Shown here: piece by piece, positions 6,001-24,434 of the stretch | Numbering within the stretch: position 1 is the first letter of the stretch | Layout of the letters: every line of letters begins with the position of its first letter | From: an uncultured archaeon | Lineage (GTDB): Archaea > Aenigmatarchaeota > Aenigmatarchaeia > QMZP01 > JAFGSV01 | Reading direction: 5' to 3' | Length of the DNA: 26,110 nt | Assembly (NCBI GenBank): GCA_964529545.1 | Contig: CAZGWZ010000002.1 | Location: forward strand, 1-26,110 | Made by a program: the position numbers and the translations under genes | The notes under the pieces: model-generated | Databases searched by the model: none | What the model was told of the DNA's origin: nothing | The model's input: only the letters and a program-made list of their open reading frames with translations

Positions 6001-9000
6001 ACAACATAACCATAGGCGTATACATACCGTCAGAGCTGCCGGCCGGGTCATACACGGGAATCATAAACGTGACCGCGGATAACTGGCTTTACGAGGTGCT
6101 GAATCTCACGCTCAGAATACCCGAGAACCTGACATGGCTCCAGACACCGTTCGTCATAGAGAAGACCATCATACACGGCACCAGCGGAATAGCCGACATA
6201 ATAAACATAAAGAACATAGGAAACGTGGACCCGACCGAGATAGACGTATACATGGATGAGACGAGAGGCAACTACACGTACTTCGGCCTGGACAAGGACG
6301 TCGTCATACTCAGCCCGACCATGAACGAGAACGTCACGGTGAACTACACCGTTCCCCTGCTTTCCGGGTACGCTAACATAGTGGGCTATGTGATGACGAA
6401 GAACGTGTCTGCCAAGACAGGGACGCTGATAAACGAGACGCTCGTGAACCTGAGCGTGCATCCATACTCGATAGACATACTCAGTCCGCTTGAGACCGAC
6501 CCGGTAATGGGCGTCATGTACACCCAGGAGCTCCAGATAGAGGTGAACCTCACTTACGCCGGAGCCGGCATCAACGACACCAACAACGTCACCTGGGGCG
6601 CGGGGCTCTTCAACACCACGGGAGCCTACCCCGTGAGCATAACCAACACCACATACAACGCCTCTTCCGGGACGTGGCTTTTGAACTTCACCGCCCCGAA
6701 CCTCCAGAACGCGACGGGATACCATATGAACCTCAGCGCAAACTACAGCCATGTCATGGGAGCCGGCGCGAACGCGACTGTGGTAAACCTCTACTACTGG
6801 GACGTCGAGTACAGGTCCGTGATATACGTGGATCCGGTGCCTCCGGACATAGTCATAGGCATAAGCCCGTTCCCGAAGGTCTCCAGAGGCAACCCGGCGA
6901 CCATAACGGTCAACGTGACCGACGCCGGCGGTGTCGCCAACGTGTCAGCCTTCGTCGAGCATCACAACATTACCGAGAGCGTCAACCTCAGCTTCATCAA
7001 GTGGGTAGGCGACACGTACTTCTACAGTGGCGTGTTCACAAATACCACAGAGAAGGGAATATACAACGTCAACGTCACGGCCTACGACATATCCTCCAAC
7101 TACAACACTACGAACAAGAGCTTCCAGGTCTCGGTGCTCGTGTACTTCCACGGATACGCGCTCGATCAGGACGAGCCTGACCCCAAGCCTCCAGTGAGCG
7201 TCAACTACAGCATGTACTTCCTGGATGCGGGCAGCACCATGTCAAGCATAGCGACGGACGCAAACGGATACTACAACAAGACCCTTGACGCCGGGCTATA
7301 TGACATATTCATACGCGTCTGGAACGAGACGCTGTATGTGAGAAGCACGGACATACAAAGACACATGTATAACCCCCTAGTATTCGGTAACATAAAAGAC
7401 ATAGGTCTCGTCGGCTACAACACGAGGGGACTTTTCGAGGCAAGGATATTCGAGGCCAACGACAGCATGTTCGCAGGCAACAAGAGCGACAACACCACGT
7501 GGAACGACACCTTCGAGTTCACGTTCGATAACGTGACTCTGAGCTTCAACTACTCCTCATATTCAGGCGACATAATAAGCACCAACCTGCTCGGCATATA
7601 CCAGTGCACTGACTGGGTTCAGGGAACCGGATGCACGGGCCTGTGGAACAGGCTCAGCGGCGCAGGCGTGAACAGCACGCAGAAGACCATATCAGTAACG
7701 CTTACGTCACTTTCGGGCGGTTATGCCGTCGCCGAGTACATCTGCGGGAACGAGGAGTGCGAGAACGCTTATGGCGAATCGGTCGGTAACTGCCCGCAGG
7801 ACTGCGAGGTAAGCGAGGAGGAGCAGCCGCCTCCTGAAGAGGGCGGAGGCGGCGGAGGCGGAGGCGGCGGAGGCGGCGCCGGTGCTGCAGCCGCGGCAAT
7901 AACGCCACCAAGGATGCCCGTGGAGATAGACTCGCAGCTCATATTCGTGACGCTGCGCCCGGGCGAGCACGAGATACACAGCATAGACATAAAGAACAGC
8001 CTCCCGGCCACGATAACAGCTGACGTGAAGGCTACAGGCAATGCTTGGGAGCTCGTGATGATAGAGCAGCCCAGCATAGACATAAGGGCAGGGTCTACAG
8101 GCACCATAAAGATAAAGGTCTTCACGCTCCCGTCGACCATGGAGGGCATATACACGGGCGACATAGTGACGACCATAAGGGACAGGAACATAACGCACGT
8201 TACGCCGATAACAGTGAAGGTTGAGAGGCCCAAGGAGCCGCTGCTTGACGTCAAGGTCAAGGCGCTAAGCAAGACGGTGGAGCCCGGGACGAACCTTTCG
8301 CTTGAGGTAACGCTTCTCAACATGGGAGAGACCGCTGAGATAGACGACGTTGTGATAACCTATGAGATAAGGCATCTGGACAATCCGGAGATTGTGATAA
8401 GGGAGAGGGAGACCCTGGCGATAGACCAGGTCAAGACTTTCAAGAGGAGCATGTTCATACCCGAAGACACCCTCATAGGAAGGTACTCCGTCGAGCTCAA
8501 CGTGACCTACTGGGACGGACAGAAACAGGCATTCGCGATAGACTCCTTCGACGTACTCTATGTGGCGCCGCCTCTGAAGATGCTTCAGGCGCTGTTTTCC
8601 AGCTGGATAACGTATGCCATAATATTCGCTCTGATACCAGGCTACCACTTCGGCTCGCAGTTCTACCGCGACTGGAGAAAGAAGAAGAAGGCCAAGACGA
8701 GGTACATATTCCCGATGAACGTCAACAAGCTTCCGAAGGCGGGAGATGCCTCGCTTCTCGTAGGAAAGGTCGCAGAGACTGAGATAAAGGCGTACATGAC
8801 CATGAGCGACCTGACGACGCACAGCATAGCCGCAGGTTCTACGGGTGCCGGAAAGTCGGTGTCGGCACAGGTCTGCTCCGAGGAGCTTCTCAAGAGGGGC
8901 GTTCCGATAGTCGTAATAGACCCGACCGCGCAGTGGACAGGGTTCATGAGGCCGTGCAAGGACCCGGCGATGCTAGAACTTTATCCGAAGTTCGACCTGA

Positions 9001-9796: not shown

Positions 9797-12019
9797 ATGG
9801 CAAAGGATGGCGAAGAAGGAAACGGGAAAGCCCCCGAATCTCCGGGGGAGGAGAAGGAGAAGCTCAGGTCCAGACTGGAGTCTAGGATGAAGGGCTTACT
9901 AAGCAGGCCAGGGAAGGGCGACAGGAAGGATGATGGTACCGGCGGAGAAATGGGCGCTGCCGATGGCGGCGCCGGCGCGGGGGCCGAAGAGAATGCAGAA
10001 GACCAGCCCAAGCCCGGCGAGAGCAAGCCCGAAGAGAAGAAGCCAGAAGAGCCGTCTGCTCCTCCAGCTGACGAGCCCGCGGCTTCTGCCGAAACTGCAT
10101 CTCCTGCAGAGCAGGCCGATGCAAAAGGCATGAAGAACATAAGCGAGTCGCCTGCTAATGCAGAAGAGAAGACTCCTGCTGAAGATAAGAAGGAGAAAGA
10201 CAAGCCTTCCGATGACGGGGAGAATGAAAAGCAGAAAAAGAAGGAATCCGGGAAAGCTCCTGAAAAGAAGGCCGATGAAGACGACGAGCCGGAAGGAGAG
10301 GACGAGGATGATGATTCAGAAGAGGCGAAGAAGCCTGAAAAGAAGGGCGGGAAACGAGAGGACAAGAAGGGAGCGAGCGATGCCGGAATGCCGAATGAGT
10401 CCCTTGAAGAACTCCAGAGCCAGAAGGATGAGATAGAGGCACTCCTCTCATCAGTGGAGGATTCCTACAGGGATGCCACCCTTCCTGACAAGACCTACAG
10501 GGAGGTCAAGGAGAAGAACGAGAAGAAGCTGGCTGACATAAACGTGAAGATAGAGAAGATAAAGAAGGCCGGAGGCGGCAAGGATTTGCCATCCCCAACA
10601 GAGAAGGCGACAGGCGTCCCGTCATCGAGCCAGGAGCTTGAGGATGTGCAGAAGAGGATGGAGGCCGAGGCGTCCTTTGCAGGAAGCGGCACCTCGTCCG
10701 GCTATCCCGGGCAGGTGCCCGGAGGCGCTGCACCTTCTTTATCAGGCGAGCCGCCGTCACTCCAGGATAAGGAGACCAAGAAGGCTGAGGCTCTCATAAA
10801 GATACTGGAGCAGAAGATAGAGGACAGGCTGAAGGACGTCATAGCTTCCGCAAGCGTCGAGGTAACCGACAAAAGGCTCAGGAAGATGGAGACCAAGGTC
10901 GACGAGCTGGAGCTTCTGCTGAAGTCGAAGGTAGACGTGATCACAGGCGAACTGAGGAGCGTGAAATCATCCGCCGAGTCTGTCTCGACTTATGACAAGC
11001 AGTTCACGTCGATGAAAACGGATATAGAGAAGGTCAAGGCTCTGGTGGACAGCGTCAAGGAAGCCAAGAACATAGTGGACGAGAAGATGCAGAGGGTGGT
11101 GGAGAACTTCGCCGAGATAAGGTCCATAGTCTATCAGAGGGAGGCCAATTCAAAGGAGCAGAACGTCCTCATGGACAAGCTCAAGGACACAGTTTCGCAG
11201 ATAGACTCGGCAAGGATACTGCGTGAGTTCACGACAAGGGACGAGCAGATGAGGGATGTCAACACGAGGGTGGAAAGGCTCGAGAGGACCAACAAGATGA
11301 ATTCCGACAGCCTGTCCAAGATAAAGGGTCTCATGACCGACATAGGGAGCCTGGAGAACATAATAAAGGCCAGCAAGCACGTCGGAGAGAAGCTCGAGCG
11401 CATACAGGAGATAGAGGAGAGGCAGAAGGCCACGACGTCGAGGCTTGACGGCGTATATGTGGACATGAAGAAGAAACTGGACGAATTCAACGACTACAAG
11501 ATAAAGCAGGACAAGCTCAACGGCATGGTCGAGGATGTCGTCAAGAACGTCGAGGAGGTCTCAAGGAGGCTATCCGACTATGCGACAAAGGCGGACGTCA
11601 CAAGTGTCAAGGACGAGCTGAAGGTGGTGAGGCAGACCGCGACAGCCGCCGCCTCAGCGCCGCATGTTCAGACGGCATCGCCGGCGGCTTCCGGCACTAG
11701 CCCGGAGGTCTCAAAGCTCAGAGAGCAGAAATCCGAGATAGAGACGATGCTCGCCACGCTTGAGGAGAACTTCAATGCCAAGGCTATGAGCGAGGATGAG
11801 TACAACAGCGCCAGGGAGAAGAACATGCAGAAGCTCGTCGAGCTCGAGAAGAAGATAAGCGCTGCCTCGTCATCAGAGGCTTCCAGCAAGACGGCTTCCG
11901 GGAGCGGAGGAAGCCACTCGAAGGTGATGCTCCTTGCAAAGCTGAAGGAGTCCTATGAGAACGGCGAGATAAGCAGGAACGCTTATGAAAAGAGCAGGAG
12001 GGTCCTCCTCGGAAAGTGA
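9797..12019 (+). CDS. Cytoplasmic protein: disordered acidic/Pro/Lys-rich N-terminus, long coiled coil and three SHOCT-like helical units (740 aa)
   Basis: Good RBS and no hydrophobic span. E/K/P/D-rich first ~200 aa and a heptad-like central region. SHOCT-like segments at 10403-10540, 11708-11845 and 11921-12016 (LKESYENGEISRNAYEKSRRVLL). Confidence 0.85.
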   Translation: MAKDGEEGNGKAPESPGEEKEKLRSRLESRMKGLLSRPGKGDRKDDGTGGEMGAADGGAGAGAEENAEDQPKPGESKPEEKKPEEPSAPPADEPAASAETASPAEQADAKGMKNISESPANAEEKTPAEDKKEKDKPSDDGENEKQKKKESGKAPEKKADEDDEPEGEDEDDDSEEAKKPEKKGGKREDKKGASDAGMPNESLEELQSQKDEIEALLSSVEDSYRDATLPDKTYREVKEKNEKKLADINVKIEKIKKAGGGKDLPSPTEKATGVPSSSQELEDVQKRMEAEASFAGSGTSSGYPGQVPGGAAPSLSGEPPSLQDKETKKAEALIKILEQKIEDRLKDVIASASVEVTDKRLRKMETKVDELELLLKSKVDVITGELRSVKSSAESVSTYDKQFTSMKTDIEKVKALVDSVKEAKNIVDEKMQRVVENFAEIRSIVYQREANSKEQNVLMDKLKDTVSQIDSARILREFTTRDEQMRDVNTRVERLERTNKMNSDSLSKIKGLMTDIGSLENIIKASKHVGEKLERIQEIEERQKATTSRLDGVYVDMKKKLDEFNDYKIKQDKLNGMVEDVVKNVEEVSRRLSDYATKADVTSVKDELKVVRQTATAAASAPHVQTASPAASGTSPEVSKLREQKSEIETMLATLEENFNAKAMSEDEYNSAREKNMQKLVELEKKISAASSSEASSKTASGSGGSHSKVMLLAKLKESYENGEISRNAYEKSRRVLLGK

Positions 12020-12026
12020 TGGGACG

Positions 12027-15000
12027 ATGATAGGCACCAAGAGCATTACGGGGATAGCACTTGTGGGAATCATAGCCTTAGTGTTCATCCTCAATGCCAG
12101 GTTCACGGGCTCCTACGTCTACGTTCCGGGCTCCACTTCCGGGCTTGCAATATGGAGCTCCTATGACCCGCAGGGAGGTTCGATCGTACCCTTCATAAAC
12201 GAGAACATGACTTTCTATGCGAACTTCACTACGCTTGGAGGGGCGCCCATAGCAGGCGCCGGCGTGACATGCGACATAGAGTTCAACTCGACCGGCTTCT
12301 GGACGGCTCCGGCCGGGATGACATACGACCCGGGAAACCAGCTCTACGGGTACGAGGGAAGCTTCAAGTACTCGGGGAACCACAGCTTCAGGGTGACCTG
12401 CAACGGCTCCACGCAGGGATACGATGCGAACCTCCAGGGCAACGACACCTATAATGTGCACAAGAACGAGTGGTGGAATGCGACTTGGACCTACAGAATA
12501 AAGATAAGCCTTTACAATCACGGGGTGCAGCTCGACGACTGGCCGGTGGAGGTGGACCTCAACCTGACAGAGGTGCTGAGGCAGATCAACGTGGAGGGCA
12601 CGTTCGACGACAACTCCACGAGGGTCGTCGAATACAATTCCACTGGCGGCGTCATGCACCCTCTTCCGAGCCAGTTCGACAAGGACCTGCATCACAATCC
12701 GGCGACGAACGCCTTTGGAACGCTCGTCTTCATGGCAAACGGTACTACGCCCGCAAACTACAACAGGACGTTCTTCATGTACTTCGACATAGAAGAGAAC
12801 GGCCTCAAGGAGCAACCTTCCTATCCCACCAACATAAGCTACCTGCTTTCGGGAGACGAGATACACATAAACACCACGTCCTTCAGCTTCTACATGGACA
12901 CCAACAGGAGCGATAACACCTCTGGCCTGTACGACGTCAGGTTCAAGGACTATCCTGTCCCGTTCTTCATTGTGGATGAGACCGGGAGGACGGCCGAATA
13001 CAGCGAGTACTCAAACGGGACCAACAACCTCAGCTTCGATTTCACCTCGGGCGTGGCCATAATAGAGGGCCCCCTGAGGCTCACCGTCATACAGACGGGA
13101 GACGAGGTGCTCTTCGGTGACCTCTCGTCCCCGACGGGCGAGGGCATGATGGTAAAGAAGTACCACTTCTACAACAAGGCCGGGAACGAGACCCTTGGCG
13201 CTTTCATACACATAACCCAGAACTACACGAACATTGCGGCATACCCGGTACAGCGCAATTCCACAGCCATGGGATCGATAGCATTCGATGTCGGCAGGGC
13301 ATGGCAGGGTCTTGGTTCAAGCGTGTCCTTCTACGATGGCAATTCCAGCGACCCCGGCTCGTGGGTCATGGCGGGCTCGGACGCCCAGGAGGTACTGGGC
13401 ATGGTCAATCTCAACGAGACGACGGACGAGTTCTACGTCTACAACTACACACCATATGAGAGGATAGGAGTGCAGCTCGATTCAGTCACCGTAGACCCGT
13501 TCGAATCGATAATACAGACAGCTTTGCTATACATAGGAAGCGGTTCCACGTCGGAGTTCATCGCGGTCAGAGACATAACAAGGGACATGCCTGCAGTGAC
13601 CTCCGGAAGCTACGAGACCATGCCTATGGAATCGATCACACACACAGACTACGACGTGTACAACAGGAACGAGACCATATTCATAGAGTCGAACATAACC
13701 TACGACCCGTACAGCTTCCTGGACACGGTGAACGTGAGCCTGAGCAACGGGACCCCGGGAGCCGGGGACGACATAGAGATAGAGGTCTATGATGACGGGA
13801 GCCATGGAGACCAGGTCGCCGGAGATTACGTCTATTCGAACTTCTTCAACATATCAACCACGGAGAATACGGGACTGTGGACGGCAAGTACCATAGTCTA
13901 TGACATGTTCGGCGTGCCCGTTAACCAATCCCATAAGAACTTCACCATAACTAAGACCTTCTTTGTAAACACCAGCGTGATAAACCAGAACGGCGAGATA
14001 GACAGGGAAGTAAATGCCACGGTCTTTGTGATGAACTACCGGCAGGACACGTGGCAGGAGGGCGCTTTCGTCAACTGCTCGGTCTACGATTCCACGACGC
14101 TCCTGTACACTGTAGATCAGCAGGACGTCAACCAGACCGAGCCCGGAAGGTTCTTCGTCAACTTCACAGCCCCGTGGTATTTCGGATCCTTCACGCTCAA
14201 CTGCACCGCCGGGAAGGATGGCAATGACGGGTCCGACATATCGGACTTCGGCGCCGAGGACGTTGAGACCGACATCGACATAACCGTGCAGCCGGAGAAC
14301 CACACATTCGTAAACATAACTTGGATAACGGGAGACAACATCACCCTCAGGGTGAACGCCACTAACACTCAGAACGGAACCGCGTACAACGCGACCGTCG
14401 ACCTGGAGCTGCCCTCAAACATAACGGCGAACTCGACGTCATACATATGCGAGACCGACGAGGGAGCCAAGCAGATAATGATAGGCAAGGCGTGCTACGT
14501 GGACTTCGTCATAAACGTTATGAACACGACAGCACCGTCCAACTTCACATTGAACGTGAGCGTGACATGGAACAACAGCAACACAATCATCGGTCACAAC
14601 GAGACCAGCATGAACGTCACGATACTTCCGACATACCTCATGAGCGTTCCTCAGGACAACATAATAACCATGATAGCCCGCGGCATAAACAAGTCGCTCT
14701 CAAACATCACCATATACTCTTACGGAAACGCGCCCCTCGAGAACGTCAACTTCGATGTCATCGGGTTCAGTCAGGCATTCCACTTCTCGTTCATACCTTC
14801 AGGCTACACCCAGGTTAATGCGGGCGTGACCACGGAGTTCGCCGCTTACCTCCTCGTGGACGAGGGATACTCGACAGGATTTTTCACGGGGATCCTGAAC
14901 GTGACGACTTCTAACAACGGCTACAAGGAGCTGGAGCTGAACATCACCGTCTCGGGCACCAACGTAAGCATAAACGTGCTCCCGGAGAACATCACGGCCT

Positions 15001-18000
15001 CGAACATAACTTACTATGACAGCCAGAACTTCACGCTCGACTTCAATTCCAGCAACATGGGAAACAACACGGCATACAACACGAACGTGACCATAAACTT
15101 CTCAAGCCCTTACATAAGCACCACCAACTCGACCAACTACCAGTGCGGCGACCTGCAGCCCGGCGAGAACTGCTCCGGAATATTCCTTCTTACCGTATCA
15201 AACGGGACGCCTTCGGGCCTTTACGATGCCAACGTGACCGTGGTATGGGGGAACCCTGAGATAGGGGTCATGATGAACTCGAGCGTCATCAACATAACTG
15301 TTGAATCCAACGTGAACATGACCATAAACGAGACGAGCATAAACGGCACGGTGGTGCACGGCACTACCGGCGTCATAGGAAACTTCTCCATGAACTCGAC
15401 CGGAAACGATCCCGTAACCGGCATAGAACTGACGATAGTTGACACATACGGACAGCTGCAGGACTTCACGGTGAACGTCATACCTAACGTAAGTGCCACC
15501 CAGGGAGGCAACATGACATCCGGACAGCTGGTGTACGTAGACGTCGAGGTGTCGGTCCCGCTCGGCTATCCAAACGGGACGTATGCCGGATTCCTCAACG
15601 TCACAAGCAACAACTCGGGCTACAGGCTCCTTGGAATTGAGGTGACGGTCCCCGAGACCAGGACATGGGACATGAGCCCGCTGGACTGCATGCATCCCGA
15701 GTCCCCGGAGTTCGGCACGGTCTGCAATGTCACAATCGAAAACACCGGCAACGTCCAAATAGAGTTTGACATCTATCCGCCGGCGACCGGCGACAGCAAC
15801 CTGACCATGAACAACTACACCTGGCCGTCTGTGACGTACTTCAGTATAGAGAACCAGTCGTCTTTCATACTCAGCATCTATTATAACGTGACGGACGCGC
15901 CCCTCACGTTCTACAACTCGAGCTACAACGTAACGGGAGTATACACCGTTCCTCAGAGCAGGAACGTATCGATACTTCTTACGCCGTTCGTGAATCCCCT
16001 CATCAACATTTCAGTGTCTCCATCGTCACTTCCCCAGCAGAACTCCACGGAGCTCGTCGCATACGTTCTTGACCAGGGAGGGGTAGCCGGAATCAATTTT
16101 ACACGCGTCAACGTGACGAGGCCCAACGGCACCGTGGACCAGATAGTAATGAGATATCTTGGGGGCACGGACCCTTACATATATCAGGAGTTCTACCCGG
16201 CAGACCCGTTAAACGGGACATGGGGAAGCACCCTTTCAAGAGGCAACTATACCGTCGTCGGCTATGCAGAGGACAACCTCGGGCTCAATCAGACTGCGAA
16301 TTCCAGCTTCTACGTCTACGTAGTCCTCGTTGCCGGAATAAGCACGTCGCGCTCTAACGGCGAATACTATCAGGGGGAGACAGGGACGCTGCTGTTCAAC
16401 GTCACGGAACTTTCGGGAATCCCGTTATCGGGAGTCAACGTCTCGATAGTCATAAAGGATCCCACCAACCATTCCGTGGGCATGCAGAACTCCGAGTTCT
16501 TGACCAATTCCCAGGGAGAGCCGAGCTCATACCCGACATTCGAGCTATTCTCAGACTCTCTCACGGGGACCTACAACATAACCGTGACATCCGCATTCAA
16601 TGACACACCCGTATCCCGTATTTGCTACGACACTTCATATTCAAGCTTCACCGTCCTGGAGACCACGCCGGGCGTGCTCACCCTAGACCTAGAGGCGCCT
16701 TCCGAGGTCAGCACGGGCGACGGCCTTGAGGTTTACGCCACCATAACAAACGGGGTCAATAACATAGATCCTGACTGGATAATGGTGTCCCTATACGACT
16801 CCCTTGACAATGCGATACTCACAAATCAGACGATGACATACCAGTCCACGGGAAGGTACAGCAGATGGCACAACACCTCCGCCTCCGTCAACACGGGCAG
16901 CTGGAGGTGGCACGTCACCATAGGAAAGGACGGAAACGTAATATCAAAGGACGTGTTCACGAGGCTGGTCGGAGGCCTGTTCGACGTGAGGGACATAACG
17001 ATAGTGGACAACACGATAGAGGACCTTCAGATAACGGTAGTCATAGAGAACACGGGAGACATCCCCCAGGACGTGTTCGTCCTCTGGAACCTCACGAGGC
17101 TTGATACGGGAGCGCCGCTTCAGGAGGGACTCGATACCGTGAGGATAGACCCGCTTACATCCTACGTGTATACCATAAACCCAAGCGGGATAACTTACAC
17201 AGGAAGCGCAAGGATACTATTCGTTGCATCCTACTCAGGCACCGAGAAGGCCGCGGCGTTCGAGGACTTCACGATACAGGAGGGCGGCGAGGGGCCAGCT
17301 CCTCCGCCGGGCGGCGGAAAGACGAAGGAGGAGGAGGCGCCTTCCGGAGGTGCGGGTCTGGGGCCGGTAGGAGCACCTGACATAGAGATAACCGACTATC
17401 CGGACGAGATACCGACCGAGGCAGGGAGGCTGCAATACCCGTCGGTGACGGTGAACAACACGGGGTCGGTCTCCCTTCATAACGTCATGATAAGGATAGA
17501 AGGCATACCAAATTCGTGGTACAATGTAACGCCGAAGCTCATACCTATAGTGAATCCCGGCTCCACAGGGACATTCGTAATAAACATGCTCGTCCCGCAG
17601 GGTACCGAGGCAAGGCAATACTATGGCGTCATAAACGCCACCTCTGACGAGGCAAAGGACGAGAAGATAACATCGGTCATAGTCTTCGGCTCCAGGGAAG
17701 AGCTCGTGAGGTACCAGCTGCAGAAGCTCAAGGAGGAGTTCAAGGAGTTCAGGGAGGACGTCAACGCCACGGCTGCCATGGGAGAGAAGGACCTCAGCAG
17801 GGTCTACGGGCTCATAGACGAGATACAGTACCAGATAGACCTTACCGAGGGATACCTCGACGCGAAGATGTACGACGAGGCGCTGGAGGCGGTCACCACC
17901 GGGTGGAGGCTCCTTGACAGGGCCAGGGAGCTGCTTCGTGACGCTCCTCCGCTCAGGCCCGTTACCATACTGGAGATACCCGACTGGATGATAACGCTTA

Positions 18001-18326
18001 TACTGATACTTATAATATTGGCCCTGGCGCTCGTGGTGGTCATAAGCAGGTACAAGAAGAAGCTGGAGAAGGTATTCAAGTTCAGAAAGACCGTGACGGA
18101 CTCTGTCGCGGCAGCGGACGTGTTGGGCTCATTCGGCGGCGGTGGCGCCCCAAGCAAGGTGGAGCAGGAGGCCATAGCCAGGACGAGGCGCGAAGAGGAG
18201 AAGAAGAAGATAGAGAAGGTGCTGTCCCTTCTGGAGAGGGAGTACAAGGAAGGCATAATATCAGAGAAGGCATATAACGAGCTCGTCAAGAGGAACGCGG
18301 ACAAGCTCAAGGAGCTCGGAGGCTAG
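12027..18326 (+). CDS. Second giant surface glycoprotein (~2099 aa): N-terminal signal/TM, DUF2341-like and Ig-like domains, C-terminal TM and SHOCT-like cytoplasmic tail
   Basis: ATG 12027 (7 nt after the previous stop) gives MIGTKSITGIALVGIIALVFILNARFTG, a signal-like start. The track's start at 11985 overlaps the upstream gene. Other elements: WWNATWTYRIKI (12471, DUF2341-like start), YDDGSHGDQVAGDYVYS (13788-13838, acidic Ca-binding-like), Gly/Pro linker near 17283-17370, TM WMITLILILIILALALVVVI (17985-18044) followed by RYKKK, and dense N-x-S/T. Confidence 0.88.
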   Translation: MIGTKSITGIALVGIIALVFILNARFTGSYVYVPGSTSGLAIWSSYDPQGGSIVPFINENMTFYANFTTLGGAPIAGAGVTCDIEFNSTGFWTAPAGMTYDPGNQLYGYEGSFKYSGNHSFRVTCNGSTQGYDANLQGNDTYNVHKNEWWNATWTYRIKISLYNHGVQLDDWPVEVDLNLTEVLRQINVEGTFDDNSTRVVEYNSTGGVMHPLPSQFDKDLHHNPATNAFGTLVFMANGTTPANYNRTFFMYFDIEENGLKEQPSYPTNISYLLSGDEIHINTTSFSFYMDTNRSDNTSGLYDVRFKDYPVPFFIVDETGRTAEYSEYSNGTNNLSFDFTSGVAIIEGPLRLTVIQTGDEVLFGDLSSPTGEGMMVKKYHFYNKAGNETLGAFIHITQNYTNIAAYPVQRNSTAMGSIAFDVGRAWQGLGSSVSFYDGNSSDPGSWVMAGSDAQEVLGMVNLNETTDEFYVYNYTPYERIGVQLDSVTVDPFESIIQTALLYIGSGSTSEFIAVRDITRDMPAVTSGSYETMPMESITHTDYDVYNRNETIFIESNITYDPYSFLDTVNVSLSNGTPGAGDDIEIEVYDDGSHGDQVAGDYVYSNFFNISTTENTGLWTASTIVYDMFGVPVNQSHKNFTITKTFFVNTSVINQNGEIDREVNATVFVMNYRQDTWQEGAFVNCSVYDSTTLLYTVDQQDVNQTEPGRFFVNFTAPWYFGSFTLNCTAGKDGNDGSDISDFGAEDVETDIDITVQPENHTFVNITWITGDNITLRVNATNTQNGTAYNATVDLELPSNITANSTSYICETDEGAKQIMIGKACYVDFVINVMNTTAPSNFTLNVSVTWNNSNTIIGHNETSMNVTILPTYLMSVPQDNIITMIARGINKSLSNITIYSYGNAPLENVNFDVIGFSQAFHFSFIPSGYTQVNAGVTTEFAAYLLVDEGYSTGFFTGILNVTTSNNGYKELELNITVSGTNVSINVLPENITASNITYYDSQNFTLDFNSSNMGNNTAYNTNVTINFSSPYISTTNSTNYQCGDLQPGENCSGIFLLTVSNGTPSGLYDANVTVVWGNPEIGVMMNSSVINITVESNVNMTINETSINGTVVHGTTGVIGNFSMNSTGNDPVTGIELTIVDTYGQLQDFTVNVIPNVSATQGGNMTSGQLVYVDVEVSVPLGYPNGTYAGFLNVTSNNSGYRLLGIEVTVPETRTWDMSPLDCMHPESPEFGTVCNVTIENTGNVQIEFDIYPPATGDSNLTMNNYTWPSVTYFSIENQSSFILSIYYNVTDAPLTFYNSSYNVTGVYTVPQSRNVSILLTPFVNPLINISVSPSSLPQQNSTELVAYVLDQGGVAGINFTRVNVTRPNGTVDQIVMRYLGGTDPYIYQEFYPADPLNGTWGSTLSRGNYTVVGYAEDNLGLNQTANSSFYVYVVLVAGISTSRSNGEYYQGETGTLLFNVTELSGIPLSGVNVSIVIKDPTNHSVGMQNSEFLTNSQGEPSSYPTFELFSDSLTGTYNITVTSAFNDTPVSRICYDTSYSSFTVLETTPGVLTLDLEAPSEVSTGDGLEVYATITNGVNNIDPDWIMVSLYDSLDNAILTNQTMTYQSTGRYSRWHNTSASVNTGSWRWHVTIGKDGNVISKDVFTRLVGGLFDVRDITIVDNTIEDLQITVVIENTGDIPQDVFVLWNLTRLDTGAPLQEGLDTVRIDPLTSYVYTINPSGITYTGSARILFVASYSGTEKAAAFEDFTIQEGGEGPAPPPGGGKTKEEEAPSGGAGLGPVGAPDIEITDYPDEIPTEAGRLQYPSVTVNNTGSVSLHNVMIRIEGIPNSWYNVTPKLIPIVNPGSTGTFVINMLVPQGTEARQYYGVINATSDEAKDEKITSVIVFGSREELVRYQLQKLKEEFKEFREDVNATAAMGEKDLSRVYGLIDEIQYQIDLTEGYLDAKMYDEALEAVTTGWRLLDRARELLRDAPPLRPVTILEIPDWMITLILILIILALALVVVISRYKKKLEKVFKFRKTVTDSVAAADVLGSFGGGGAPSKVEQEAIARTRREEEKKKIEKVLSLLEREYKEGIISEKAYNELVKRNADKLKELGG

Positions 18327-18338
18327 CCCCAGGCGCGG

Positions 18339-18490
18339 TTATACGTTCGTAACAGTACCCTTGTTATTATATGTTCATACTATTTTTTGCAAAAAAATCA
18401 AATCATATGAAACAAACACCTCCGAGCCTCTGGCAAGGGGAGGCATTTTCCGACTTCTGATATGGGGTGTCTTTTTTTATATGTTCATAC
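18339..18490 (+). promoter_or_regulatory. AT-rich spacer with a direct repeat TTATATGTTCATAC (18367-18380, 18477-18490) and a degenerate third copy (18339-18352)
   Basis: An exact 14-bp direct repeat at 110-bp spacing; the third copy TTATACGTTCGTAA matches 11/14. Each begins with a TATA-like TTATA. Confidence 0.55.
18383..18396. terminator. Perfect palindrome TTTTTTGCAAAAAA; possible oligo-T terminator on both strands or a protein-binding site
   Basis: Lies 57 nt after the cluster 1 stop. Oligo-T tracts are the usual archaeal termination signal. Confidence 0.4.
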
Positions 18491-18514
18491 AATAATCATA
18501 AACAGGGTGTGAAA

Positions 18515-19183
18515 TTGGGCAAAGTAAAGTCGAAACTCACTGAATACAAGAACTTCTGGCTGATATGGCTCTCAGCTGCGGGCCAGGAGAACGGGATATC
18601 GCTTTTCCGGATACAGAGCACATGGGGCATAAAGACCAACTACCTGTACCACAACGAGGCGGTCATACAGAAGCCGCTCTTCCGCATAATGGAGGAGGGG
18701 GGCTTCATAGAGATATCCGGCAAGAAGATAATCGCCAAGTTCAGTTGGATACCGGACTACCTCGGCGAGCTCTTCTCAGCCGAGAAACCCGTGGGAGGCT
18801 TCTGGTCACCCGAGCTCGTCATGAAGGCCAAGTGGCCTCTCGTCCAGCCCTTCATGGAGAAGTACAGGAAGTACTTCTTCGAGCTCTCGAACCTTCGCAT
18901 GCTCTACCGCGACGACAGGGACGTCCTCGGTATATACGGAAGGTACGTGTTCCAGCACGTATTCCTCTACGTGCTCTTCTCAAACATCATAGCCTTCTCC
19001 AAGAGGTACAGCGCCGACATAGTGACGAAGATGATAGCTACATCGGTGTCCCTGGGAAGCGGCGCTGACGTCCTCAACTACATGTACCAGCTTCATTCCA
19101 CTATAGGAGGTTCCTCGGATTTCCCGGTGCTCTCCAGCAACGAACAGGAGCTCGGCAGGATACTCTGCACGCTCAGATGGTGA
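18515..19183 (+). CDS. Hypothetical cytoplasmic protein (~222 aa), N-terminal half possibly winged-helix-like
   Basis: Typical codon usage for this window. The start is probably TTG 18515 (GGGTGTGA upstream) or GTG 18509 rather than the track's 18467, which lies in the AT-rich spacer. The helix-helix-hairpin pattern (LFRIQSTWG..NYLYH..LFRIMEEGGFIEISGKKIIAKF) is only suggestive. Confidence 0.7.
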   Translation: MGKVKSKLTEYKNFWLIWLSAAGQENGISLFRIQSTWGIKTNYLYHNEAVIQKPLFRIMEEGGFIEISGKKIIAKFSWIPDYLGELFSAEKPVGGFWSPELVMKAKWPLVQPFMEKYRKYFFELSNLRMLYRDDRDVLGIYGRYVFQHVFLYVLFSNIIAFSKRYSADIVTKMIATSVSLGSGADVLNYMYQLHSTIGGSSDFPVLSSNEQELGRILCTLRW

Positions 19184-19186
19184 GAC

Positions 19187-19197
19187 CGAAATTTATA
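19187..19197 (+). promoter_or_regulatory. Archaeal BRE-TATA promoter (CGAAA TTTATA) for minD
   Basis: A purine-rich BRE directly followed by TTTATA, 33 nt upstream of ATG 19231. Confidence 0.65.
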
Positions 19198-19230
19198 TTA
19201 CAAAGAGTAAAATAATACAGGTCTGTTCCA

Positions 19231-20004
19231 ATGGCAAGGATTATAGGCATACTATCTGGAAAGGGCGGGGTGGGCAAGACGACCACCGTCGCAAACGTCG
19301 GGACAGCCCTCGCCTCGCAATACAAGAAGAACGTGATAATAGTCGACTGCAACATAACCACGTCCCATCTCAGCCTTTACCTTGGGATGTACTATTCGCC
19401 CGTGACGCTGAACCAGGTGCTGACGGGCAAGGCCAAGATACACGAGGCCATATACGACTACCACGTCCCGGGACTCCGGGTCATACCGGCATCTCTCTCC
19501 TTGAAGGACCTTCGTGGCGTGGACGTCTCAAGGCTGTCCAAGGTAGTAAAGAAGATAACCGACGAGGCGGACATAGTGCTCCTGGATGCAGCTCCCGGCA
19601 TGGGACGCGAGGCCATGTCGACGATGCGCGCAAGCGACGAGGTCCTCTTCATATCGACTCCTTTCGTTCCGTCCACGATGGACATAATAAAGTGCCATCA
19701 GGTCGCTCTCGAGGTAGGGACCAAGCCCCTCGGGATAGTGCTCAACATGGTCGGCAAGGAGAAGTACGAACTGTCCACCGAGGAGGTGGAGCAGCTGGCG
19801 GAACTCTCGGTCATACAGGAGATACCGATGGACAAGAACGTCCTTCGAAGCCTCGCCCTCAAGACGCCTGTAGTGTCCTTCGACCCGAACTCTCCCGCAA
19901 GCCGGGCGTTCCTGGAACTTGCCGGCAAGATAATAGGAGAGAAGTACGCGCCGGAGAACTTCTTCACGAGGTTTGCAAGGCTCTTCGGGATAGGAAAGAA
20001 GTAG
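19231..20004 (+). CDS. minD: MinD/ParA-family ATPase, archaeal MinD type
   Basis: Deviant Walker A GKGGVGKTT (19258-19284), VIIVDCN, IVLLDAAPG and a C-terminal amphipathic membrane-targeting helix FFTRFARLFGIGKK (19960-20001). Confidence 0.9.
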   Translation: MARIIGILSGKGGVGKTTTVANVGTALASQYKKNVIIVDCNITTSHLSLYLGMYYSPVTLNQVLTGKAKIHEAIYDYHVPGLRVIPASLSLKDLRGVDVSRLSKVVKKITDEADIVLLDAAPGMGREAMSTMRASDEVLFISTPFVPSTMDIIKCHQVALEVGTKPLGIVLNMVGKEKYELSTEEVEQLAELSVIQEIPMDKNVLRSLALKTPVVSFDPNSPASRAFLELAGKIIGEKYAPENFFTRFARLFGIGKK

Positions 20005-20040
20005 GCGCTTTATACGCTTAGCAATACGTTTCTAGCAATT

Positions 20041-20051
20041 CTATTTAAGCA
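20041..20051 (+). promoter_or_regulatory. Possible TATA element (TTTAAG at 20044-20049) for a near-leaderless transcript starting at about 20073
   Basis: AT-rich spacer; the element ends 23 nt upstream of ATG 20073 and there is no obvious SD. Confidence 0.35.
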
Positions 20052-20072
20052 CTATAACCAATTATAAGACAG

Positions 20073-20354
20073 ATGGGTATGTGGCTAGACATAGGATTGT
20101 CGGTATTCCTTGTTGCATCCGTGGTATTTCTAATCTATGAAATGAGGAAATTCAAGACGCTTCATTCGAAGAAGTACGAGCTTCCGACAGAAAAGATATG
20201 GGAAAAGTTCGTCGGCATCAGGCCGGAGGACATGGCAGACTCAGACCTCACCATGAAGGTCCAGAAGCTCGAGGGGAAGCTCGACCAGATACATAACGAT
20301 CTCGAGAAGCAGAGGAAGCTCACTTTGAAACTCATTGAGGAGCTTGGTAAGTGA
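20073..20354 (+). CDS. Small bitopic membrane protein with cytoplasmic coiled coil (93 aa)
   Basis: Hydrophobic MWLDIGLSVFLVASVVFLIY followed by RKFK. C-terminal heptads KVQKLEGKLDQIHNDLEKQ. The stop overlaps the next start (GTGATG). Confidence 0.8.
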   Translation: MGMWLDIGLSVFLVASVVFLIYEMRKFKTLHSKKYELPTEKIWEKFVGIRPEDMADSDLTMKVQKLEGKLDQIHNDLEKQRKLTLKLIEELGK

Positions 20355-22300
20355 TGTTTGGGAAGGGCAAAGGCGAAGAGGAGAAGATGCAGGAAGAAGA
20401 GAAGAAAAAGAAAGAGGAAGAAAAGAAGAAGATGGAAGAGGAAATGAAGAAGAAAGAGGAAGAAAAGAAGAAGCAGGAAGAGGCGCAGCCACCTGCTGAG
20501 ACGGCTCCTCCTGAGCCAGCCGCTGGTCCTGAATCCCATGGCGGCGGCCTTGAGGGACTCAAGAACATAAGCGAGTCACCTGCCAATGCTGAAGAGAAAC
20601 CGCCTGAAGAAACCGTCCCGAAGACCCCTCCGGAACCCTCTCCCGAGGAGACTGCTACTGAAGAGAAGCCCAAGAAGAAGGCAAGGAAGGAATCCGCGTC
20701 TGAGACCGAGAAGCTCAGGAAGCAGATAGAGACCCAGAAGGAGAGCCTTCGCGCGCTTGAGAAGGAGAAGGAGGATGCGATGAAGAAGGGCGATGAGCTC
20801 GCAAGCCTCATAGAGGACATATCGAGCGAGATGAAGGAAGCCAAGGCCGCGCCTGCAGCCCAGGCTGCACAGCCTGCCCCTCAGATGCCTGACATAACGC
20901 CAAAGCTCAAGGAAATAGAGGAGAAGACCACAAGCCAGATAAGCGCTCTGCAGGCGGCCATCGCGGAGATGGGCAAGAAGAAGGATGATGAGAAGAAGGA
21001 CGAGGAAGACGTCACTGCGACCATGAAGAAGATGTTTGACAAGAGGCTAAAGGAGCTATCAGACAAGCTCGAGGAGGCCAGCGCCAAGCCCGCTCCAGGG
21101 ACCGGTCAAGGCCAGGGCGGGGAGGTGTCCGGCGGCCTCAGCGCCATCGGCGGAGGCGTGGAGTTCAAGAAGGAAGTGGACAGCCTCAAGAAATCATTGA
21201 AGGACATGGCTACGCTGCTGGATGCTTTCAAGGAGGAGGCTGAGAACAGGTTCATGGCGATAGACCGGGAGATGCAGGTCGTCGAGAGGTTCCCGGAAAT
21301 GGAGCAGAAGATGGACCAGTTCGAGAAGAAGCTCGGGCCCGAGAACGTCCAGAGGCTCAGGCTCCTCATATCGAGCGCCGACGACCTAAAGGACGAGGTC
21401 ATACCGCTCGTCGTCAAGAGGGTTGTCGAGGACAAGGTCGAGCCGCATTCCAGGAAGGTAAAGGAGGTCCAGGACGAGAACAGGAAGAACAGGGAGAAGA
21501 TGCTTGAGATATCAGCGGAGCTGAAGGCTGACAGGAAGGACATAGAGAAGCTCTACAAGCTCGATGACAGGATATCAAAGCTCGAGGAGCTCACGAGCGG
21601 CTTCACCAAGCTCATAGCCGAGGTCAGGACGACGATGAAGGACCTCGACAAGAACCAGAGGATCGAGCTCTCGGAGAAGATGAAGGAGATGCTTCCAAAG
21701 ATGATAGAGACAGAGTCCAGCAACGTGAGAAAGGAGTTCGCGGCAAGGTTTGCATTCATGGAGGAGGCGCTGAAGTCTGCCGAGAACGTTGCTTCCGAGG
21801 CCCACAAGGACATAGCGGCGCTCTCCGCCATAAAGGGCGAGATGGACATGCTCGACGACAAGATGAACTCGCTCGACGAGGAGAAGGAGAAGCTCGAGAT
21901 GAAGATAGAAGGCCTCAGGTCGAAGGACAAGGACATAGAGGACAGGCTTGACGACATGCAGACTCCGAAGGAGATAATAACGGAGCTGGACAACAAGACC
22001 AAGGACATACTCGACATAAGGGAGTTCTTCGTGAGGCGAGCGAACCAGCTTGAGGAGAGGATAAACCAGCTGGACGAGAGGGCCGTCCCCACAAAGAAGC
22101 TCCACGAGAAGGTGGACAGCATATTTGCAAACCTTTCCGAGCTCCGCGAGAATTACAAGAAGCTCGACGAGAGGGTCACTGCAGAGAACAAGCAGTTCCA
22201 GACGCTCATAAAGGAGCATTCTGAGCAGAAGGCCAAGCTTGAGGACAAGCTCAAGGAGCAGAAGACGAGGATCTCGGTCCTTCTGAAGGAGTTCAAGTGA
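20351..22300 (+). CDS. Long coiled-coil protein with N-terminal E/K single-alpha-helix segment and Pro-rich disordered linker (648-649 aa)
   Basis: Start GTG 20351 or ATG 20354, coupled to the upstream stop. EEEKKKK-type repeats at 20375-20482; the remainder is E/K/L/I/M heptad-rich; no TM. Confidence 0.85.
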   Translation: MMFGKGKGEEEKMQEEEKKKKEEEKKKMEEEMKKKEEEKKKQEEAQPPAETAPPEPAAGPESHGGGLEGLKNISESPANAEEKPPEETVPKTPPEPSPEETATEEKPKKKARKESASETEKLRKQIETQKESLRALEKEKEDAMKKGDELASLIEDISSEMKEAKAAPAAQAAQPAPQMPDITPKLKEIEEKTTSQISALQAAIAEMGKKKDDEKKDEEDVTATMKKMFDKRLKELSDKLEEASAKPAPGTGQGQGGEVSGGLSAIGGGVEFKKEVDSLKKSLKDMATLLDAFKEEAENRFMAIDREMQVVERFPEMEQKMDQFEKKLGPENVQRLRLLISSADDLKDEVIPLVVKRVVEDKVEPHSRKVKEVQDENRKNREKMLEISAELKADRKDIEKLYKLDDRISKLEELTSGFTKLIAEVRTTMKDLDKNQRIELSEKMKEMLPKMIETESSNVRKEFAARFAFMEEALKSAENVASEAHKDIAALSAIKGEMDMLDDKMNSLDEEKEKLEMKIEGLRSKDKDIEDRLDDMQTPKEIITELDNKTKDILDIREFFVRRANQLEERINQLDERAVPTKKLHEKVDSIFANLSELRENYKKLDERVTAENKQFQTLIKEHSEQKAKLEDKLKEQKTRISVLLKEFK

Positions 22301-22304
22301 TAAA

Positions 22305-24434
22305 ATGGACGAGATAAGAGAGATAGAGACAGAGCTCAGGAGGCTCCGCGATGAGGCGGACCACCAGAAGACCAGGGCAGCGACCATATCAAAGGAGAAC
22401 AGGACGCTTGCAGGCAGGAACGAATACCTGACCAACAAGCTCAAGGAGGCATCATACGTATACGGCGAGGCAGGAAAGAGGCTCCTCTATTTCATAAACA
22501 ACCAGGTCAATCCGATAGTCGAGAGGCTCAACGCGCTCGAGGCCGCGGAGAAGAAGCTCAACGGAAGGGACAAGGTCCTGGGAGATTCCATGCTCTCAAC
22601 AGAGAAGGCAGTAAAGAACGACGTCGCGAAGACCGAGAAGATGATAACTTCCCTTAACAGGGGCCTTGAGGCCACGGAGCTGAAGCTCCAGCGGGCCATA
22701 AAGCTCTCTTCCAGGAAGGGTGAGAAGGGAGACGCCGCGCTCGATGCCAAGGTGTCAGCCCTGATAGCAGACCTCGAAGGAAAGATGCAGTCCCTAAGGG
22801 CAGCCGTCGACAAGAGCAGTACCGCAAAGGCTGCAGCGCTCTCCAGCAGCCTCGGCGCAAAGATGGAGCTCATAAAGGAAAGGAGCCTCATAATGGGCAA
22901 GGACATAGAGGAGCTCTACAAGTTCGAGAAGGACATAGAGGGGCTCGAGGGCAAGCTCCAGGCAGCCATATCCCACATAACCCAGATAAGGCTCGACATG
23001 GAGAAGCTCTCCCAGAGCATAAGAAACGACATGGCAGCCACGAAGACGACAATAGCAAACGACATCCAGTCGCTTTCCGCAGAGGCGGAGAAGCGGCTTC
23101 TTTCTCTTTCATCCGAGCTGAGCAAGACAGACGAGAAGATAATGGGAGACATGAAGCTCGAATTCCAGAAGAGCCAGAAGGCGCTTTCGGACCAGCTCGA
23201 CAAGGTAAGGGCCGACATGGCAGCTTTCGAGTCGTCCGCTGACGTCAGGATGAGAAAGGCAGAGGCAACGCTGAAGAGGATACAGGCGGATTTCAGCGCA
23301 GACGTCGAGAAGAGGATGAAGATGCTAGAGGCCGGCATACAGGGGAACGCAGAAACCAGCAGGGACATACAGAAGATGTGCGACACGAAGTTCGCCGAGA
23401 TAGTGAAGCGTGCGCATATAGACCATGACAATCTGACGCTTGCAGAGACCAAGATACTCGAGGAGCTCGAGGTTTTCAAGGACATGACCAAGAGGAAGGA
23501 GATGACCCTTGCGAACAGGCTGGAGAAGCTCTCCAAGTCGGTTGACGGCAAGCTCGAGAGAGCGAGCGCCGGCCTGGAGAAGCATGCCGACGCCATCGTA
23601 GGCAAGGTGAACACGGACCTTCTCACGAGCATAGGCTCCGTGCAGAAGGGCATGAGCCTCATGGGCAAGGACATACAGGCACTCAGGTCCCTCGGCACCG
23701 AGATGTCGGGTCTCGCTGACGAGCTTTCCAAGAGGAAGGAAGAGACCGCCGCGCTCTCGGCAAAGCTCGATTCCATGTCGCATGCAATAGCCGACAAGTC
23801 TGAGAAGGACGACATGAGGATAAAGGAGCACATGTCTTCCGTAGAGAACGACATAAAGACGAGGCTCGAGACCGCGGAGTCAAGGATAGTCAGGGAGAAC
23901 GTCAGGTCTTTTGCCGCCGCCCGCCAGACGCTGAAGAAGGACATACATGCTCTCAGGGAGGAGAATGCCGCCCTCAAGGCCGAGGTCAGGAACCTCCGCG
24001 GCATGATACCCGTTGTCAACGGAATGCAGAAGTCCATATCCGCGATAGACCACAAGGCCGAGGAGTCAAGGGCCACGGTCGAAAAGATTTCTTCAACCAT
24101 ATCTTCAGACATAGAGAAGGAGGCACTCAAGGTGAGCAAGGAGCTTGCCGGAATATCGGCAAAGCTCAAGGCCGACCTCAGGGACGTACTTGCGAGGGAG
24201 AAGGAGAGGTTCGCCGGCCAGAGCGCTGACATTTCCGCCAAGTACGACGTCATCGCAAGAACCGCGGGCGGCCTTTCCGGCCAGGTAACGTCGAACTCTG
24301 ATGCTGTCGTATTGAACAAGAAGAGGATATCGTCAGTCGATGCCAAGGTCGACAGGATACTCAACGAGATAGTCGGCCTGAAGAAACAGTACAAGGTCGA
24401 GATGGGCAAGCTTCTGAAAGAACTGGAGGGCTGA
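22305..24434 (+). CDS. Long coiled-coil protein (709 aa)
   Basis: Starts 4 nt after the previous stop. Almost entirely helical A/K/E/L/S/I composition; no TM or catalytic motif seen. Confidence 0.85.
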   Translation: MDEIREIETELRRLRDEADHQKTRAATISKENRTLAGRNEYLTNKLKEASYVYGEAGKRLLYFINNQVNPIVERLNALEAAEKKLNGRDKVLGDSMLSTEKAVKNDVAKTEKMITSLNRGLEATELKLQRAIKLSSRKGEKGDAALDAKVSALIADLEGKMQSLRAAVDKSSTAKAAALSSSLGAKMELIKERSLIMGKDIEELYKFEKDIEGLEGKLQAAISHITQIRLDMEKLSQSIRNDMAATKTTIANDIQSLSAEAEKRLLSLSSELSKTDEKIMGDMKLEFQKSQKALSDQLDKVRADMAAFESSADVRMRKAEATLKRIQADFSADVEKRMKMLEAGIQGNAETSRDIQKMCDTKFAEIVKRAHIDHDNLTLAETKILEELEVFKDMTKRKEMTLANRLEKLSKSVDGKLERASAGLEKHADAIVGKVNTDLLTSIGSVQKGMSLMGKDIQALRSLGTEMSGLADELSKRKEETAALSAKLDSMSHAIADKSEKDDMRIKEHMSSVENDIKTRLETAESRIVRENVRSFAAARQTLKKDIHALREENAALKAEVRNLRGMIPVVNGMQKSISAIDHKAEESRATVEKISSTISSDIEKEALKVSKELAGISAKLKADLRDVLAREKERFAGQSADISAKYDVIARTAGGLSGQVTSNSDAVVLNKKRISSVDAKVDRILNEIVGLKKQYKVEMGKLLKELEG

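Follow-up and report, generated by a model that had tools for sequence, protein, structure and literature searches.

A conserved peptide in the disordered arm of a MinD-adjacent coiled-coil protein of Aenigmarchaeota and its probable copy in a second protein of the same gene cluster

How do two proteins that cannot otherwise be aligned, and whose genes are separated by several kilobases, come to carry the same 13 residues? The question is raised by a metagenome contig of 26,110 nucleotides (nt) from Candidatus Aenigmarchaeota (DPANN), analysed here at its whole length and referred to as the window, in which two coiled-coil proteins, termed A and B, contain the peptide KNISESPANAEEK at 10133-10171 and 20561-20599, respectively, in both cases in the frame of a long open reading frame (ORF). 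The account favoured here, which taken as a whole is judged a little better than an even bet, is that a docking-type motif of B was copied into A and was then kept unchanged at the protein level. In A the match stands in the context GMKNISESPANAEEKTPAED and in B in the context GLKNISESPANAEEKPPEET, the latter within an ORF that opens at 20351 or 20354 (Table 1). The two 39-nt cores are identical at 35 of 39 positions and differ at core positions 18, 24, 30 and 39 (tcg/tca, gct/gcc, gca/gct and aag/aaa), all of which are third-codon positions and synonymous, so that the identical peptide and the silent nature of its differences, both claimed in a preliminary description of this DNA, are confirmed. 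The similarity of the DNA reaches at most 51 nt at 84% identity (10133-10183 against 20561-20611), with one further shared glycine codon two codons upstream of the A copy (10127-10129, ggc in A and gga in B). Outside this tract the arms are unalignable, as had also been stated of the low-complexity sequence that flanks the motif: blastn gives only low-complexity matches of 10-12 nt, and the BLASTP signal consists of the motif alone. In 2000 composition-preserving shuffles of both arms the longest common peptide was 3-8 residues compared with the 13 observed, hence the match is not due to chance, and it is the sole shared peptide of at least seven residues between any pair of the nine window proteins. 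AlphaFold2, run with ortholog alignments, leaves residues 44-115 of B and nearly all of residues 35-197 of A without secondary structure and with a predicted local distance difference test (pLDDT) score below 50, and residues 105-113 of A, just N-terminal of the motif, barely reach a pLDDT of 50; the disordered arms of the preliminary description are thereby supported by the structure predictions for both proteins.

The peptide has a different standing in the two families, and B is considered first. B consists of a basic N-terminus (MFGKGK), a K/E-rich helix (residues 6-42), the disordered arm (residues 44-115) and a coiled-coil rod, and its translation most likely starts at the ATG at 20354 rather than at the GTG at 20351, since MFGK is the N-terminus of all orthologs. 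The motif lies at residues 65-82 and includes a single conserved lysine. Its family-wide core (Table 1) is present at the equivalent position of the arm in 16 of 16 near-clade B orthologs with an intact N-terminus (P0028-P0043) as well as in the B proteins of nine related loci (L001-L009), and the island reads, for example, GGIEGLKNIGSAT, GGIEGLKNISASAANAGEQ, EGLSGLKNLSSSPAN, GGLGGLKNFGEPE, SGLAGLKKFGSGA or SLAGLANFAAGE. In an alignment of 17 sequences the columns of the G-L-x-G-L-K-N core are common to 12-15 of the 16 others, the exceptions being the leading glycine, which is common to 11, and the variable x, and the flanking columns are common to 0-5. When 1104 ORFs from 18 loci were scanned with a 16-column hidden Markov model (HMM) of the B core, B orthologs alone gave matches, with scores of 14-23 bits, and on this basis the other proteins of the cluster were dismissed as carriers of the motif. 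The nearest sampled relative is the metagenome-assembled genome (MAG) CAZTRL01, whose MinD, the ATPase encoded upstream of B, is 89% identical to that of the window. The B arm of this relative reads GMDGLKNISESPANAAGEP (locus L001, and free of gaps in L055), and over the stretch GLKNISESPANA its gene differs from that of the window at 6 of 36 nt, all of them synonymous; in the subclade of the window the core is extended to ...KNISESPANA. These comparisons point to a peptide that is ancestral to B and selected in it, and the earlier proposal of protein-level selection on a short linear motif holds well for this protein, in which the island is found in all near-clade orthologs and every one of the six differences from the relative is silent. 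The accompanying suggestion of a modification site is not supported: an N-x-S sequon was rejected as a conserved feature because position +2 is occupied by neither S nor T in most B orthologs (KNIG, KNFG or KNMG), and an S-P phosphosite because most B orthologs are without S-P.

The unit conserved might in principle be a nucleic acid, for example a regulatory site at the RNA or DNA level that both genes contain, and the two window genes and the B gene of CAZTRL01 do have the first 15 nt (AAGAACATAAGCGAG) in common. However, all differences, both between the copies and between the species, fall at wobble positions, and the core codons of other B orthologs vary synonymously (aat, atc and several glycine and leucine codons). 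The repeat could also be an artefact of assembly, but a chimeric join would not yield an island that lies in frame within two orthologous genes and carries four substitutions. A regulatory site or an artefact is regarded as extremely improbable.

Two further observations concern the N-terminal part of B. Far-clade orthologs (L010-L017, with MinD proteins 65-71% identical to that of the window) begin with a short N-terminus, where a basic start (MAKKK) leads straight into a motif of glycine and hydrophobic residues, for example GLEGINDL or FEKMGDLGKGV; in near-clade B proteins the K/E-rich helix sits between the basic start and the glycine/hydrophobic motif. The B arms are also hard to assemble, as in L001, where the arm includes an assembly gap (a run of N at 3696-3795) with CCCGAGGCCCCGAAGGAG (PEAPKE) on both sides, which is spanned by the JGI contig L055.

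Protein A comprises an N-terminal amphipathic helix (residues 16-35), a disordered arm (approximately residues 35-197), a helix-hairpin unit (residues 203-258), a long coiled coil and then C-terminal helix-hairpin units. The motif was not found in at least 22 near-clade A orthologs with an intact arm, in which the best 13-mer matches reach 5-8 of 13 residues and lie in low-complexity sequence, nor in six far-clade A orthologs, nor in eight genome loci recovered with the A alignment, none of which is more than 53% identical to A. P0002, the A ortholog of the nearest relative, is encoded on contig CAZTRL010000047 in the MAG that also provided L001, and its arm is entirely free of the motif; in the alignment of A the motif columns are gaps in the other sequences. 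The A copy begins G-M-K-N, the G-L-x half that opens the B core being missing, and its score with the B-core HMM is no more than 3.6 bits; the continuation AEEK is common to window A and window B only. The absence of the motif from A orthologs, including that of the nearest relative, implies that the A copy is lineage-specific and derives from B, and the parsimonious reading of these sequences is that no more than 51 nt passed from B to A in the lineage of the window. The preliminary description had implied an old motif common to both proteins, which is not supported by these results. It had named absence from orthologs as a finding that would tell against it and had proposed a search for the motif in relatives; the motif is indeed absent from the orthologs of A, including the nearest relative's, whereas those of B retain the core, and KNISESPANA is found in the B protein of the nearest relative and in none of the A orthologs.

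A back-translated scan for the full 13-mer in a collection of 185,579 genomes and a scan for the 11 residues NISESPANAEE in the JGI metagenome collection gave no match, both collections being without the window's own contig. A relaxed scan for KNISESPAN returned 47 matches, among which the only real ones are L001 and L055, which represent the same B ortholog, the others being chance matches through degenerate codons or matches in the wrong frame. A search with a 40-residue peptide in a set of 5.8 billion proteins gave no candidate and did not return the parent protein itself either, and it is hence uninformative.

Near-clade A orthologs have a conserved N-terminal amphipathic helix of their own, L-x-K-R-L-E-S-K-V-x-G-M-L, encoded at 9842-9901 in the window. 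In one subclade (P0016, P0020, P0021 and L073) this helix reads SGLKGLHKRIGS or GGIGGLRKRFGS and looks like the B core SGLxGLK[NK]FGS, a likeness that is not significant (3.1 bits with the B-core HMM, E 8.4).

If the motif had been present in both A and B since the origin of the cluster, it would have to have been lost from A in every other sampled lineage, which would require many independent losses, given that it is missing from 22 or more A orthologs of the near clade and from 6 of the far clade. Such an origin would be in keeping with the like architecture of the two proteins, in which a disordered arm is followed by a coiled coil, and with the faint resemblance of the A helix to the B core in the one subclade, but the latter falls short of significance, as stated above. 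Homology between A and B is moreover not demonstrable, and they were rejected as ancient paralogs with no BLASTP support outside the motif and an hhalign probability of 21%. A also shares the clade-specific extension and AEEK with the B protein of the same genome and not the ancestral form of the core, and an ancient motif common to both is considered very improbable.

A transfer from B to A would not be the only exchange between the two arms. Across 12 genomes with both genes, the longest peptide common to A and B within a genome is 4-7 residues, with two exceptions, namely the window (13 residues) and MAG AUK155 (locus L007; 12 residues, KTEAKPDSAESE). The background between genomes is 4-8 residues, except for the motif itself, of which window A and CAZTRL01 B share 10. 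In L007 the arms of A (875-1038) and B (11231-11363) contain three shared in-frame units of about 40 nt with approximately 95% nucleotide identity, which include KTEAKPDSAESE and AQSEPAAQQKTE and which differ at three synonymous and three non-synonymous codons. L007 is best read as an independent and more recent A/B exchange of unrelated, apparently unconstrained sequence. For the window it is proposed that at most 51 nt, made up of the second half of the core and its extension, were copied in frame from B into the A arm 10.4 kb upstream. The likely route between the two arms, both of them GA-rich and of low complexity, would be short-tract gene conversion or template switching, and the transfer would have been followed by silent changes only.

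The age of the transfer and the selection that may have acted after it can be estimated from the tract itself. Of the sites in the core, 7.33 are synonymous, with 4 differences, and 31.67 are non-synonymous, with none, so that the proportion of synonymous differences (pS) between A and B is 0.545 and the Jukes-Cantor dS is approximately 0.97. The silent-only pattern has a Fisher P of 4e-4, and four random substitutions would all be silent with a probability of 0.001-0.004, according to the transition/transversion ratio assumed. The pS of the copies is similar to the value for MinD when the window is compared with its nearest sampled relative (0.59), which would imply that the conversion is not recent; a recent strain-specific copy or conversion, the other outcome that the preliminary description had named as telling against it, is therefore borne out as regards the copying and not as regards its recency. 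Since only silent changes have accumulated, the peptide would have been kept by purifying selection in both proteins, which is the interpretation that the silent-only divergence favours, and the case for selection on the linear motif is strong for B and plausible for A.

Several points weigh against this interpretation. The statistics rest on 13 codons that were picked for their amino-acid identity, and the confidence interval of pS extends from 0.17 to 0.88. Comparison with the outgroup places only one silent change (gcc to gct) on the A branch, which gives but a faint indication that the A copy itself has been under selection. Part of the motif is missing from this copy, which is without the G-L-x half, scores the 3.6 bits noted above and may not bind as B does. 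The motif departs from the usual peptide of a MinD partner by its position away from the N-terminus in near-clade proteins and by its single conserved lysine. The collections searched hold no closer relative of the window's organism by which the copy might be dated or its fixation judged, and a donor allele from another strain could have brought the silent differences into A.

The A copy might alternatively be a neutral by-product of arm exchange with no function in A, the silent-only pattern having arisen by luck or through a diverged donor allele of B; in one form of this explanation the donor was the B gene of a foreign strain, where selection on B had let silent differences accumulate ahead of the transfer. 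The exchange in L007 moves arm sequence without evident function, as its mixture of three synonymous and three non-synonymous differences illustrates, the A copy has only part of the conserved core, and no A ortholog needs the motif. The B genes of different species, too, differ by silent changes only, at 4 positions in 30 nt compared with 3 in 30 nt for the two copies. Luck is at odds with the low probability, given above, of four silent changes out of four. As for a foreign donor, window B is the closest sequence known, as A differs from it at 3 of 30 nt and from the CAZTRL01 B at 5 of 30, the AEEK extension is common only to the two proteins of the window, and a foreign allele is an extra assumption with no data behind it. 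A neutral copy is accordingly thought rather unlikely.

The genomic setting bears on what the peptide may bind. Homologs of A and B were found only in MAGs of Candidatus Aenigmarchaeota/Aenigmatarchaeota, and 17 loci of this group were fetched with MinD as the anchor. The gene order giant1-A-giant2-p238-MinD-(small)-B-C recurs in these 17 related loci and is the same in every locus of sufficient extent. The preliminary description had called the motif the strongest sequence link between two clusters, a statement that has to be toned down, because the conserved synteny links them more strongly and shows the two to be one cluster. Near-clade loci that span this region (L001, L002 and L004-L009) have MinD, the small gene and B in that order, and far-clade loci retain MinD followed by B. 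From the end of MinD to the start of B the distance is 350 nt, and from A to MinD it is 7 kb. The TGA stop codon of the small transmembrane (TM) protein overlaps the ATG of B by one base (20352-20356), and the two are therefore probably translationally coupled. No TM segment is predicted in either A or B. The C-terminus of MinD (19954-20001) ends in NFFTRFARLFGIGKK and includes the amphipathic tail FFTRFARLFGIGKK, which resembles the membrane-targeting sequence of bacterial MinD; the start of B, MFGKGK, is a faint echo of FGIGKK in this tail.

All genes judged real in the window lie on the + strand (Table 1). The P-loop domain of giant1 has weak matches to DUF87, HerA_C, CedD, TraC and mad8. 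Both giant1 and giant2 contain NEW3 (NPCBM_assoc) domains, and, judging from their layout, very large parts of both may be extracellular, with short ends in the cytoplasm. The listed ATG of giant2 overlaps the 3' end of A by 35 nt (11985-12019), and its true start may be slightly downstream, as giant2 begins within a few bases of the A stop codon in other loci. Two minus-strand ORFs (24507-25571 and 25611-26048) are S/L-rich antisense readings of D and are probably not genes. Matches to SMC, Rad50, ZorA and LmuB (PADLOC, NCBIfam) were set aside as coiled-coil noise, being far under the cutoffs or very weak. A literature search for this gene cluster in Aenigmarchaeota returned nothing.

Table 1. 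Genes of the window and position of the conserved B core (5' and 3' ends open where the contig ends)
Feature	Position	Strand	Description
giant1	111-9776, 5' end open	+	one TM helix, residues 2824-2842; then HerA/FtsK-like P-loop domain
A	9797-12019	+	740 aa; disordered arm, coiled coil
giant2	11985-18326	+	TM helices at residues 20-38 and 2002-2020
p238	18467-19183	+	238 aa; matches no family
MinD	19231-20004	+	archaeal MinD-type ATPase; TIGR01969 244.6 bits (cutoff 201.75); PDB 1hyq E 1e-48
small TM protein	20073-20354	+	one N-terminal TM helix, short coiled coil
B	20354-22300	+	648 aa from ATG 20354; disordered arm, coiled coil
B family-wide core GLEGLKNI, consensus G[LI]xGLKN[ILFM][GS]	20546..20569	+	conservation island in unalignable arm
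C	22305-24434	+	coiled coil
D	24432 to contig end, 3' end open	+	coiled coil; begins MADFNKIRTGISGLKK

In this setting B is a cytoplasmic coiled-coil protein encoded directly after an archaeal MinD and a small membrane protein, with its linear motif in a disordered linker between the basic N-terminus with the K/E-rich helix and the coiled-coil rod. The peptide may be where another component of this membrane-associated apparatus docks, in which case A would have gained the docking site of B. MinD is the leading candidate for this partner, although a doubtful one, on the grounds that B follows MinD in every locus and has a basic N-terminus, that this MinD has the C-terminal amphipathic tail described above, and that partner proteins of ParA/MinD ATPases act via short peptides in disordered regions (PMC13170346). 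Other candidate partners are the ATPase domain of giant1, the tail of giant2, p238, the small TM protein, C and D. It is conceivable, if speculative, that the copying amounted to an adaptive rewiring in which A was recruited by micro-conversion to the partner of B, for example to a membrane-bound MinD of a DPANN-specific giant-protein apparatus. Were this the case, recurrent exchange between arms, as also found in L007, would be a general route by which archaeal scaffold proteins gain or swap interaction motifs.

The peptide is a previously undescribed conserved element of a MinD-adjacent coiled-coil protein, and it belongs to an uncharacterised, Aenigmarchaeota-wide cluster that encodes two giant membrane proteins, one of them ending in a HerA-like ATPase, together with MinD and several coiled-coil proteins. 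It offers a handle on which protein binds which in that apparatus. The window would in addition provide a clean natural example of a linear motif gained via a few dozen nucleotides from a neighbouring gene, and not by point mutation, and then selected. The motif itself belongs to a known kind, the short linear motif (SLiM) in a disordered arm, and it is the origin of its second copy that is unusual and well documented; no long-standing question is opened by it, and the function put forward here is a proposal.

Short peptides in disordered regions are the usual contact of ATPase-activating proteins with ParA/MinD ATPases (PMC13170346). Examples are MinE acting on MinD, the N-terminal peptide of ParB acting on ParA, and the N-terminal peptide of PomX and helix alpha-5 of PomY acting on PomZ (PMC13170346, PMC7993993). 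Like these partners of ParA and MinD, B is a coiled-coil scaffold beside a MinD-family ATPase and has a basic N-terminus and a conserved short disordered peptide. Activating peptides of this kind are short, positively charged and usually N-terminal, which fits the extreme N-terminus of B, whereas the motif lies internally with its one conserved lysine. By analogy with PomX and PomY on PomZ, A and B would be two proteins that present a peptide to one partner, but the peptides of PomX and PomY differ and act at different sites, whereas those of A and B are copies of each other. Unlike the known division-site systems, that of the window is archaeal and lies within a cluster for giant membrane proteins.

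The motif resembles SLiMs in its length of 8-13 residues, its location in a predicted disordered region, its appearance as an island of conservation and its few fixed positions (G, L, G, L, K and N). An island between unalignable flanks is found in B and not in A, where the motif is unique to the window, and what is conserved is the peptide and not the DNA, as all six differences between the B genes and all four between A and B are synonymous. SLiMs are usually held to arise de novo by point mutation, whereas the second instance here would have come by way of DNA copied from another gene. In this respect the tract is similar to the products of ectopic gene conversion, being sharply bounded, tens of nucleotides long and shared by two same-strand genes 10 kb apart, with L007 as a second example; it is also closest to a non-orthologous gene of the same genome and absent from orthologs. 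Short-patch recombination has been described in Sulfolobus. The window tract differs from the outcome of ongoing homogenisation in that it is not near-identical (35 of 39 nt), unlike the tracts of L007, and it is most readily understood as an old transfer that was subsequently conserved.

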